DNA of 41,455 nucleotides from Pseudomonadota bacterium (lineage in GTDB: Bacteria > Pseudomonadota > Gammaproteobacteria > UBA4575). This document shows, in pieces, positions 31,922 through 33,637 of this stretch. The DNA lies in contig JBCCEI010000002.1 in the NCBI GenBank assembly GCA_039030355.1, forward strand, positions 1 to 41,455. The letters run 5' to 3'. The notes under the pieces were generated by a model that was not told the DNA's origin, did not search any database, and saw nothing but the letters and a program-made list of their open reading frames with translations. Position 1 is the first letter of the stretch; every line of letters begins with the position of its first letter. The position numbers were made by a program, and so were the translations under genes.

Positions 31922-32395
31922 TTATTCTGGACCTACCACAAGCACTAAGCTTCCACGATAACGTCCCGCGGGCAATTGGGACAAATTTGATTCAGCAACG
32001 AGTACAGTTATATTTGCGTTGGGTCGACCGCAAGGCCGACGAATTCCACTTCCCCTTCGTGCACGCAGCCCACCCAGTGCTTGCCCTGGATTTAACTCTT
32101 GCGCGCCATTAGGTCGGCGGCGATCATTGTAAAAAACTCTAAAAGGTAGATTTACACCAGCATCAGAAAGAACAAATGAATTCCCAGAACCTTGTCCATA
32201 TGCAGTGATCTGATAAGGCCCACGAGGGCGCACTGCAACACATAAATTTGCATTGGCGCGTATAGAACCAGCACCTAGCACCCACCTACCCAAATTAAAG
32301 TCCTGTAAACCATAAATTCGAATAACTGCAGATGCAGATACAGATATACAAAACAACAGTAATGCGATTAGCAAGCACTTCAGATGCTTGATCAT
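31922..32395 (-). CDS. Secreted pilin-like subunit C (Arg-rich, lacks the N-terminal extension)
   Basis: It has the signal peptide MIKHLKCLLIALLLFCISVSASA and is a paralogue of the two upstream genes. Shared motifs are IYGLQDFNLGRW, the Cys pair, FRVFYND and AGRYRGSLVLVVGPE. The mature part has about 17 Arg against 6 acidic residues. Confidence 0.55.
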   Translation of the reverse strand: MIKHLKCLLIALLLFCISVSASAVIRIYGLQDFNLGRWVLGAGSIRANANLCVAVRPRGPYQITAYGQGSGNSFVLSDAGVNLPFRVFYNDRRRPNGAQELNPGQALGGLRARRGSGIRRPCGRPNANITVLVAESNLSQLPAGRYRGSLVLVVGPE

Positions 32396-32427
32396 AATGT
32401 GTATCTTGTATTTAAGGATGACTAAGA

Positions 32428-33003
32428 TTAGTCGGGAATCACAAGGAGTGTCAATGTACCTGAGTAGGCACCGCCTACGGCGGAGGATAATTCAGTATCT
32501 GGGATTTCAATCTGGACATTTGCGTTATTGACACAAATTCCAAATATGGCAGCAAGAATCACGTGGAAAGCGGTCTCTACTTGACCATGTTCTATTAAAC
32601 CTGGTGTGAGCTGCTGAGTACCAGCTATTCCAGTTTGATCATTCCAATATACGTTATAGTTTATTTGATCTATTCCATTAGATAATGTGAAGGCAGCAGG
32701 ATCAAAGCCATCACCATCACCTGCGGCACGGATCCCGTAGGTGCCAAAGTTAGAAGTTTTTGCCACACACACATCATCATTGTCGATTAGCGTTCCATCA
32801 CCAACACGCCAGACACCAAAATTAAAATCACGTAGCCCAGTGATAATGATCGCTCGATTAACTGCAATGCCAATTTCAATAGTTCCACTCGAAGTGGGTC
32901 CGAATGTACCTTGTGTCGCGGCTTGCAAATTCGAAAACGAGGCTAAAGAGACAATCAAAAAAGTCGCAATTAGAGGATTGTGTATCAGCAATCTCTTTAT
33001 CAT
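32428..33003 (-). CDS. Secreted pilin-like subunit B
   Basis: The start is uncertain among ATGs at 33075, 33030 and 33003. I chose 33003 because it gives the clean signal peptide MIKRLLIHNPLIATFLIVSLASFSNLQA. The mature protein starts ATQGTFGPTSSGTIEIGIAV and ends GGAYSGTLTLLVIPD. Confidence 0.55.
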   Translation of the reverse strand: MIKRLLIHNPLIATFLIVSLASFSNLQAATQGTFGPTSSGTIEIGIAVNRAIIITGLRDFNFGVWRVGDGTLIDNDDVCVAKTSNFGTYGIRAAGDGDGFDPAAFTLSNGIDQINYNVYWNDQTGIAGTQQLTPGLIEHGQVETAFHVILAAIFGICVNNANVQIEIPDTELSSAVGGAYSGTLTLLVIPD

Positions 33004-33103
33004 CGATATGAAGCTTATTTTTCTTATCATTCTTAAGTTGTAAAGCGCCAACAGTAAATCACTGTCAGCGCTCATACAGTTTCTTGAAACGTTAAGCTTT
33101 AAC

Positions 33104-33637
33104 TTATCTAGGAGAAACTAGAATAGTTACAACGTCAGAGTAAGTACCTGCACCAACAACATCTAAGTTAGCAGCAGGAACTACAATATCAATTGAAGAC
33201 TGAGGTGTACCACCACAAGTTGGGGACGCAGTGTCTGCATTGTCAAATGTTGTGTTCACTTGACCAGATAGCATTGCTGCTGAACTGTTACCGTCGTTAT
33301 AACTTACGTTATAAACTACTAAACCTGATGGACCGTTAAGCTGAAATTCGTTCGCGCCGCCAGGGTTAGAACTCGTCATCGTTACATCATAGTTACCTGT
33401 AGGGTTATTTGTATATACACATGCAGTGCTGCTGCCTGTGAAATCATTTCCAGGAACGTGTGAACCAGTGATATCTTGTAAAGCAGTAATCTGAATTTGA
33501 TCTCCAACCGTTACATCGATATCAATATCACCTTGAGAGGTCCCACCCAAAGTACCTTGGGTTGCAGCAATTGCACTACCGCTAACGGCCATTGTGCCTG
33601 CAATAATTAATCCTTTAACTAATTTCTTCATTTCCAT
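33104..33637 (-). CDS. Secreted pilin-like subunit A (acidic; probable major subunit)
   Basis: AGGAA lies 8 nt upstream. The signal peptide ends SAIA. The mature protein starts ATQGTLGGTSQGDIDIDVTV and ends AGTYSDVVTILVSPR. It is the first gene of the minus-strand trio, behind a 300-bp non-coding region. Confidence 0.6.
   Translation of the reverse strand: MEMKKLVKGLIIAGTMAVSGSAIAATQGTLGGTSQGDIDIDVTVGDQIQITALQDITGSHVPGNDFTGSSTACVYTNNPTGNYDVTMTSSNPGGANEFQLNGPSGLVVYNVSYNDGNSSAAMLSGQVNTTFDNADTASPTCGGTPQSSIDIVVPAANLDVVGAGTYSDVVTILVSPR

Follow-up and report, generated by a model that had tools for sequence, protein, structure and literature searches.

Fibres of the chaperone-usher type are explained by a textbook mechanism, donor-strand exchange with a tip subunit that lacks an N-terminal extension. 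In the class 5 operons, which include those of CFA/I (CfaABCE), CS1 (CooBACD), Tcf and Cbl, cfaE and cooD occupy the position directly after the usher gene. Csu pili of Acinetobacter baumannii (CsuA/B, CsuA, CsuB, CsuC, CsuD and CsuE) represent the archaic, or sigma, class. AfaD/DraD-type caps are single immunoglobulin (Ig)-like domains that accept a donor strand and have none to give. We know of no single-domain, extension-less tip in the CfaA-like class, and elsewhere, to our knowledge, CfaA/TcfC-type machinery has been described from hardly any bacteria but enteric pathogens. Here we describe a five-gene chaperone-usher pilus locus of an uncultured marine-type gammaproteobacterium, located in a stretch of 41,455 nucleotides (contig JBCCEI010000002.1 of assembly GCA_039030355.1; hereafter the window), which combines machinery of this kind with three subunits, A, B and C.

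An earlier reading of the bare sequence (the original prediction) had proposed that A and B carry a donor-strand-like extension and that C, which lacks it, caps an acidic shaft as a cationic tip. From the comparative analysis described below, we consider it likely that the locus makes a pilus by alternate-class machinery from three paralogous subunits joined by donor-strand exchange, with C as the tip, B as the adaptor and A as the shaft.

Results

Subunit C lacks the N-terminal extension shared by A and B

A, B and C are paralogues with 31–32% identity, and their signal peptides have plausible AxA-type cleavage sites. Mature A begins ATQGTLGGTSQGDIDIDVTV and mature B begins ATQGTFGPTSSGTIEIGIAV. 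Twelve of these 20 residues are identical, which agrees with the near-identity noticed earlier, and the shared start can be written as ATQGT.G.TS.G.I.I...V. Downstream of its signal peptide (MIKHLKCLLIALLLFCISVSASA), C starts with VIRIYGLQDFNLGRW, which aligns with QIQITALQDI of A and AIIITGLRDFNFG of B, the block that follows the extension. Therefore, as originally proposed, C starts directly at the next conserved block; the mature protein is a single domain of 134 residues. The alignment also shows, again as described before, that all three subunits have a pair of Cys residues, the (Y/F)xVx(Y/W)ND block and a C-terminus of the form GxY...VxP(R/D/E).

A longer true N-terminus of C, which would have restored the extension, was ruled out. 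An in-frame TAG is located 10 codons upstream of the C ATG, with no ATG, GTG or TTG in between, and 15 aligned orthologues have a common start with an invariant Ala at position −1 of the cleavage site. The possibility that C is a lipoprotein (LLFC) was also rejected, as Phe at −1 misfits the lipobox and the AxA site is conserved.

All the 25 C orthologue clusters are 156–160 aa long. The dN/dS of C relative to its orthologues was 0.04–0.13 wherever dS was calculable, and that of A was similar. In these alignments the extension is kept in 33 A orthologue clusters and its absence is kept in the C orthologues, which indicates that this absence is conserved and under purifying selection. C also retains the C-terminal GxY...VxPE strand that lines the groove. 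A subunit having a groove but no donor strand could be incorporated first only, and would end at the distal tip. A role of C as base terminator was rejected, because incorporation at the base requires a donor strand. Judged from its sequence, C is most likely the fibre tip and the assembly-initiating cap.

One C orthologue (locus L012, OZ252002.1, positions 8240–8270) is frameshifted; a single T is missing in ATGTTTTTAATGAT (T5, where MFFND needs T6). Both halves of this gene are otherwise intact and the sequence comes from a long-read metagenome-assembled genome (MAG), and the frameshift probably stems from a homopolymer error of long-read sequencing and not from pseudogenization. As this slip is the sole broken copy and dN/dS is ≤0.13, the reading of C as a pseudogene was rejected. 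The B subunit of the L012 genome is without the hydrophobic loop described below.

We also asked whether C could function outside the fibre, either as a chaperone-dependent periplasmic or secreted paralogue (an assembly regulator or competitor) or as a decaying truncated duplicate. Its lack of an extension, the absence of a strong ribosome-binding site and the frameshifted L012 orthologue are in favour of this. Such a role is, however, very unlikely in view of the strong purifying selection, the fixed length in 25 clusters and the retained groove-lining strand. In addition, the L012 lesion is one T lost from a T-run, and C has its slot and its similarity in common with two-domain tip-type proteins (see below).

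The extension has the signature of a donor strand

The N-terminal motif recurs in 111 diverse representatives of the subunit family, which points to homology and not to chance. Among these, the positions corresponding to A38, A40, A42 and A44 are occupied by large hydrophobic residues in 63, 100, 93 and 83%, respectively, and positions 37, 39, 41 and 43 are polar in at least 82%. The alternating hydrophobic pattern that had been noticed at the end of the A and B extensions is thus upheld across the family. Position 45 is mostly Pro or Gly, after which the next strand follows (V/I at 48 and 50, L at 53, D at 55). Hydrophobic/polar alternation followed by Pro/Gly is a donor-strand signature.

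The family profile, 'G-s-l-d-i-s-l-t-v-P-e-l-v-r-I', aligns with 'GSLSITVLPDCRIL' of CsuE. The extension falls on 'SLSITVLPD', which comprises the last strand of the N-terminal (adhesin) domain of CsuE and the Pro linker; the homologous CsuE strand is therefore the last one of the preceding Ig-like domain. These alignments support the assignment of the A/B extension as a donor strand, which would insert into a neighbouring subunit.

The first 12 mature residues (33530–33565, minus strand; ATQGxLGxTSxG) are more conserved family-wide than the donor strand itself, with G28 at 99%, S34 at 99% and G36 at 95%.

Alternatively, the segment shared by A and B might be an intrinsic first strand of the domain or a pro-region, in which case its absence in C would be uninformative on fibre position. 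The conservation of ATQGxLGxTSxG beyond what a donor strand needs, and the low confidence of the segment in the monomer model, would be consistent with this. We regard it as extremely improbable, however. In two-domain relatives and in CsuE, the strand homologous to it is placed between a pair of Ig-like domains, the first of which it completes; moreover, both C and the first halves of the two-domain proteins are without the segment, which would be impossible for a core strand. The donor-strand signature of the segment also argues against it.

A large unannotated pilin family includes the three subunits

Searches of A, B and C against Pfam and NCBIfam (E ≤ 0.1) gave no relevant match; the only entries were Y_Y_Y, which A matched below threshold, and a prenyltransferase model, unrelated, which was matched by C. 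None of the three matched Pfam SCPU (PF05229), no SCPU score being reached, and ten other family representatives had no Pfam match at E ≤ 0.05. We do not place A, B and C in the SCPU or CS1 pilin families, as their scores are below the thresholds. A profile built from the three subunits, on the other hand, recovered, at E ≤ 1e-3, the representatives of at least 2,323 clusters (clustered at 50% identity), of which 1,228 were at E ≤ 1e-10. Wherever the sources give a name for these proteins it is 'hypothetical protein'; neither Pfam, NCBIfam nor the databases have a name for the family. Starting a profile search from C-types brought in few further sequences, owing to the word index. The family was found in 13 of 301 sampled genomes of the class (11 of 264 genera).

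Nine of the 111 diverse members match Pfam SCPU weakly (best E 1.4e-4) and one matches DUF4402. The sole PDB sequence match of the family profile is CsuE (E 0.009), where the aligned stretch runs from the final strand of the adhesin domain through the linker and over the pilin domain. The AlphaFold2 model of A (mean predicted confidence, pLDDT, 79) gave CfaE and CfaB of CFA/I as the best PDB matches in a fold search, followed by CsuE, CS17, PapA, PapE, FimG and Caf1. By this model, A has the chaperone-usher pilin fold (incomplete Ig-like), closest to the CFA/I and Csu subunits. From sequence comparison, the family appears to be a large group of unannotated pilins that are distantly allied to archaic Csu/SCPU pilins and served by alternate-class machinery.

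The chaperone and the usher are of the alternate class

The usher contains the Pfam TcfC E-set-like domain (PF16967; 61.3 bits, cut-off 29.4) and the CooC_C domain (PF15976; 42.6 bits, cut-off 29). The chaperone matches CfaA in the PDB (6k73_A; E 1.2e-12). The D1 Pro (VTPNK versus VTPQK), the Arg of VYRV (VYRV in both) and the C-terminal Cys pair are aligned between the two proteins. A carboxylate-anchoring Arg is a hallmark of the non-classical chaperones (PMC4654587). Against NCBIfam TcfA the chaperone scored 40.7 bits (E 1.9e-10), which is below the 500-bit equivalog cut-off; it is, therefore, a relative and not an orthologue.

Archaic-type (CsuC/CsuD-like) machinery was not found: the chaperone matched CfaA, and EcpB weakly (0.16), but not CsuC, and the usher matched TcfC/CooC domains only, with no archaic-type usher match. 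The usher domains together with the CfaA-like chaperone place the machinery in the alternate (alpha, class 5, CfaA-like) chaperone-usher type. By homology, the locus is a chaperone-usher pilus locus with alternate-class machinery.

Related loci hold single-domain and two-domain tip candidates

In the 12 related MAG loci, whose genomes are recorded as uncultured Thiotrichales or Gammaproteobacteria, the order A-B-C and its convergence with the usher and chaperone genes are kept throughout. CreD adjoins the locus in 11 of these, i.e. wherever the contig reaches far enough, and this neighbourhood is not kept in the distant loci. In the 11 distant loci with a readable context, the pilin family adjoins CfaA-like and TcfC-like genes without exception. 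Most of the distant loci, though not all, hold one extension-less subunit. This is a single domain located directly after the usher in L049, L050 and L051, and L056 also has a single-domain extension-less subunit. L046 has the convergent layout of the window, and its third gene (12717–13661) encodes a tandem two-domain extension-less protein with a net charge of −8. By its slot and its sequence, C can be described as the counterpart of these tip subunits.

In most of the family proteins of 300–343 aa, both halves match the family profile. The first half of the two-domain proteins begins at the A strand, without the extension, and the second half follows a donor-like strand, the ATQG motif being absent. 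Against the C-type profile, the tandem first halves gave E-values of 1e-9 to 1e-21, better than those against the A- or B-type profiles. In a maximum-likelihood tree of 136 columns, the C-types, the B-types and the tandem first halves were together, apart from the A-types, but with weak support (SH-aLRT 80). The A subunit grouped with generic extension-bearing pilins. This grouping, its being the first gene and its having the only AGGA motif among the three (see below) suggest that A is probably the major (stalk) pilin. B, which carries an extension, is most likely a minor or adaptor subunit.

Given its position, the strand in the fused proteins could complete the first domain in cis, as the free N-terminus of A or B would do in trans. 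This raises the possibility that C and B together are a two-domain tip adhesin split into two genes, joined in trans by the donor strand of B and fused, in cis, in the sister lineages, with the Arg loop of C stacked on the hydrophobic loop of B. We put this forward only tentatively, as a doubtful extension of the proposed arrangement. If true, the arrangement would document in nature how two-domain chaperone-usher adhesins originate from pilin duplicates or degenerate into them, and the loop pair would be suited to anionic lipid or polymer surfaces, or to bundling cells through neighbouring acidic shafts.

The tip-type proteins of L047 (7971–8936) and L048 (13041–14015) are also two-domain proteins. 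Their first domain, of ∼180 aa, is Cys- and Tyr-rich and lies outside the pilin family; from the sequence, this appears to be a different adhesin module grafted onto the same pilin domain. One of the tandem examples, P0075, is known from a 1.5-kb contig.

A genome search found no two-domain family member in the genome from which the window comes. It did reveal a fourth, orphan paralogue with the extension (AADQGKLGKSSSASVEISVTV...), which is split over overlapping contig ends (C40:14504–15031 and C123:317–706). This paralogue adjoins a PEP carboxykinase gene on C40 and a GGDEF gene on C123; chaperone and usher genes are absent from its surroundings. At the start of C123, ∼400 bases (1–414) encode Arg/Pro/Gly-rich frames, as very high-G+C DNA would, in comparison with ∼39% G+C in the window. 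This stretch abuts the truncated pilin gene, and looks like a chimeric join or a contaminant.

The paralogues differ in charge and in the loop before the second Cys

Mature C has 17 Arg and no Lys (net charge +11, pI 11.4). Mature A has 1 Arg, no Lys, 13 Asp and 1 Glu (net −13), and mature B has a net charge of −12. The opposite charge of C, and the single basic residue and many Asp of A, had been pointed out in the original prediction and were confirmed by these counts. Across the 33 A orthologue clusters, the net charge of the mature protein is −19 to −5, mostly −9 to −16, except in one distant member at 0. The C orthologues have 8–18 Arg and almost no Lys, and range from −1 to +11, with C of the window at the extreme.

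The paralogues have three chemically different loops at one site, directly before the second Cys. In A this loop is acidic (FDNADTASPTC). In B it is strongly hydrophobic (AFHVILAAIFGIC), as it is in 12 of 13 B orthologues; this conserved loop had been missed earlier. In C it is Arg-rich. R113 and R114 are invariant in 15 of the 15 aligned C orthologues, and Lys/Arg residues also abound in this loop of P0069, P0106 and P0182, which are more distant C-types. The invariance of the basic loop, and its recurrence in distant C-types, argue that the loop itself is under selection. The B loop recalls the hydrophobic finger loops of CsuE (PMC6003481). A speculative role for the Arg loop of C is the binding of anionic polymers, of anionic surfaces or of the acidic shafts of adjacent fibres; the hydrophobic loop of B may, equally speculatively, bind a ligand.

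These loops bear on another explanation, in which C is only an initiating, usher-priming cap. Binding would then be a function of the shaft (a polyadhesin) or of the B loop, and the arginines would be incidental or would serve as chaperone or usher contacts. The overall charge of C is unconserved (−1 to +11) and extension-less subunits elsewhere are acidic. The resemblance of the conserved B loop to the CsuE finger loops, and the title of PDB entry 6k73, according to which a chaperone-tip complex activates CFA/I biogenesis, are also consistent with such a cap. The invariant R113/R114 and basic loop in 15 orthologues, together with the Lys/Arg-rich loops of P0069, P0106 and P0182, however, are difficult to reconcile with incidental arginines, and we consider this explanation unlikely.

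Organization of the locus

The features of the locus are given in Table 1. The subunit genes A-B-C (minus strand) are convergent with the chaperone and usher genes (plus strand).

Table 1. Genes and sequence features of the pilus locus, in window coordinates
Feature	Positions	Strand	Description
Subunit A	33104–33637	minus	ORF of 177 aa; acidic, mature net charge −13
Subunit B	32428–33075	minus	ORF of 215 aa; extension-bearing, acidic, net charge −12
Subunit C	31922–32395	minus	157 aa; signal peptide, no N-terminal extension, Arg-rich
N-terminal extension of A	33503–33565	minus	aa 25–45, ATQGTLGGTSQGDIDIDVTVG; ATQGxLGxTSxG cap motif and proposed donor strand
N-terminal extension of B	32857–32919	minus	ATQGTFGPTSSGTIEIGIAVN; kept in 13 B orthologues
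Hydrophobic loop of B	32533–32571	minus	13 residues, AFHVILAAIFGIC, directly before the second Cys
Arg-rich loop of C	32021–32068	minus	LRARRGSGIRRPCGRP, N-terminal to the second Cys
Second basic cluster of C	32105–32128	minus	NDRRRPNG, after the (Y/F)xVx(Y/W)ND block
CfaA/TcfA-like periplasmic chaperone	28636–29430	plus	264 aa; probable start ATG 28690
TcfC/CooC/CfaC-type outer-membrane usher	29461–31917	plus	818 aa; convergent with C
Orphan creD	26862–28388	minus	Divergent from the chaperone gene

The stop codons of the usher (31917) and of C (31922) are separated by just 4 bp, and the sole terminator-like hairpin for the usher transcript (31963–31982, plus strand) lies within the 3′ end of the C gene. 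The convergent transcripts must, therefore, overlap. Promoter and terminator scans gave signal at background level only.

The B open reading frame (ORF) runs 24 codons 5′ of the likely start (33004–33075, minus strand), and the upstream extensions in its orthologues are variable and non-conserved. The start is probably ATG 33003 (192 aa; MIKRLL..., compare MIKHL... of C), where the genome search match to B also begins; the mature end would be unaffected by this choice. None of the three candidate B starts has a clear Shine-Dalgarno sequence. Among the three subunit genes, a Shine-Dalgarno-like AGGA motif is present upstream of A only.

Discussion

Proposed assembly pathway

In the arrangement that we favour, each subunit would be exported by its Sec signal peptide and held by the CfaA-like chaperone as an incomplete Ig-like fold. 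By analogy with CfaE and CooD, the C:chaperone complex probably primes the usher. The extension of B would then displace the chaperone from C. At the usher, an extension of ∼21 residues (I-x-I-x-V-x-V in A) would enter the groove of the previously incorporated subunit, and A subunits would polymerise by the same exchange, giving an acidic shaft with C-B as its cap. Counted from the tip, the subunits most likely follow one another as C, B (the adaptor, which would expose its hydrophobic loop) and A, in many copies that form the shaft. Through its Arg-rich loops (LRARRGSGIRRPC and NDRRRP), C would confer on the tip an affinity for anionic surfaces or polymers.

Several observations weigh against this reading. 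L052, L054 and L057 show no extension-less subunit, and the tree node that joins C with the tip N-domains is weakly supported. In the monomer model of A, the extension has a pLDDT of 53–65 and forms short strands only. A fold search with the C monomer model gave a clear pilin match only to the pilin domain of CsuE (TM 0.40–0.43), the rest being mostly cupin and carbohydrate-binding module (CBM) noise; an open-groove pilin modelled alone gives an uninformative fold search. Several C orthologues have a net charge of only −1 to +2, the charge fades to ∼0 in the more distant ones, and in other genera the subunits without an extension are neutral or acidic (+2 to −11, calculated for uncleaved ORFs). 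From this spread among the C orthologues, and from the acidic subunits elsewhere, the cationic cap is best regarded as a lineage-level specialisation, not a requirement of the system. Thus, of the earlier proposal of an acidic shaft with a cationic single-domain tip, the architecture is supported by the comparative tests, while the cationic character is lineage-specific and is not a family trait.

Significance

Naming this family would allow pilus annotation in many environmental Gammaproteobacteria. What the analysis adds is the definition of a large unnamed pilin family, which connects machinery of the alternate class with subunits of the Csu-like (archaic) kind, and a possible cis/trans relationship between fused tips and split ones. 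As single-domain, tandem-fused and unrelated-domain tips occur in one family, the origin of two-domain adhesins becomes testable. In uncultured marine bacteria, the Arg-rich cap and the hydrophobic-loop adaptor are candidates for structures that attach the cell to abiotic or anionic surfaces.

Comparison with known systems

The tandem members of the family (P0075, P0112 and the 12717–13661 protein of L046) are among the closest known counterparts. They belong to the same pilin family, their first half is C-like, and they occupy the same slot, with a convergent layout in L046. They differ from C in having two fused pilin-like domains with a donor-like strand between them, complementation being presumably in cis, and in not being basic.

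AfaD/DraD, AggB and HdaB of the FGL polyadhesins are single-domain, extension-less and fibre-capping, like the proposed C. That single-domain tips have already been described for chaperone-usher systems of other classes (AfaD/DraD, HdaB; PMC3112383, PMC5029526) had escaped the original prediction. These caps, however, belong to the classical class with PapD-type chaperones and are not notably Arg-rich, and no sequence relationship was found between C and the FGL-type caps.

Csu pili likewise have several extension-bearing pilins and an extension-less tip. They differ from the locus in the window, where the usher and the chaperone are of the alternate type, and CsuE has two domains.

With the class 5 pili, the locus shares a CfaA-like chaperone and the TcfC and CooC_C usher domains. 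The A model has its best matches in CfaE and CfaB, and several related loci have an extension-less subunit after the usher, as cfaE and cooD are. In contrast to class 5 pilins, whose families Pfam would include, the window subunits showed no detectable similarity in sequence to a Pfam family, and resemble class 5 in fold alone. There are three subunits and not two, each with a Cys pair; their genes are convergent with those of the chaperone and usher; and the tip candidate is a single domain of 134 residues, not a two-domain adhesin. Hence, the system would work like CFA/I, CS1 and Csu, and it is alternate-class by its usher and chaperone, not by its subunit sequence or tip architecture.

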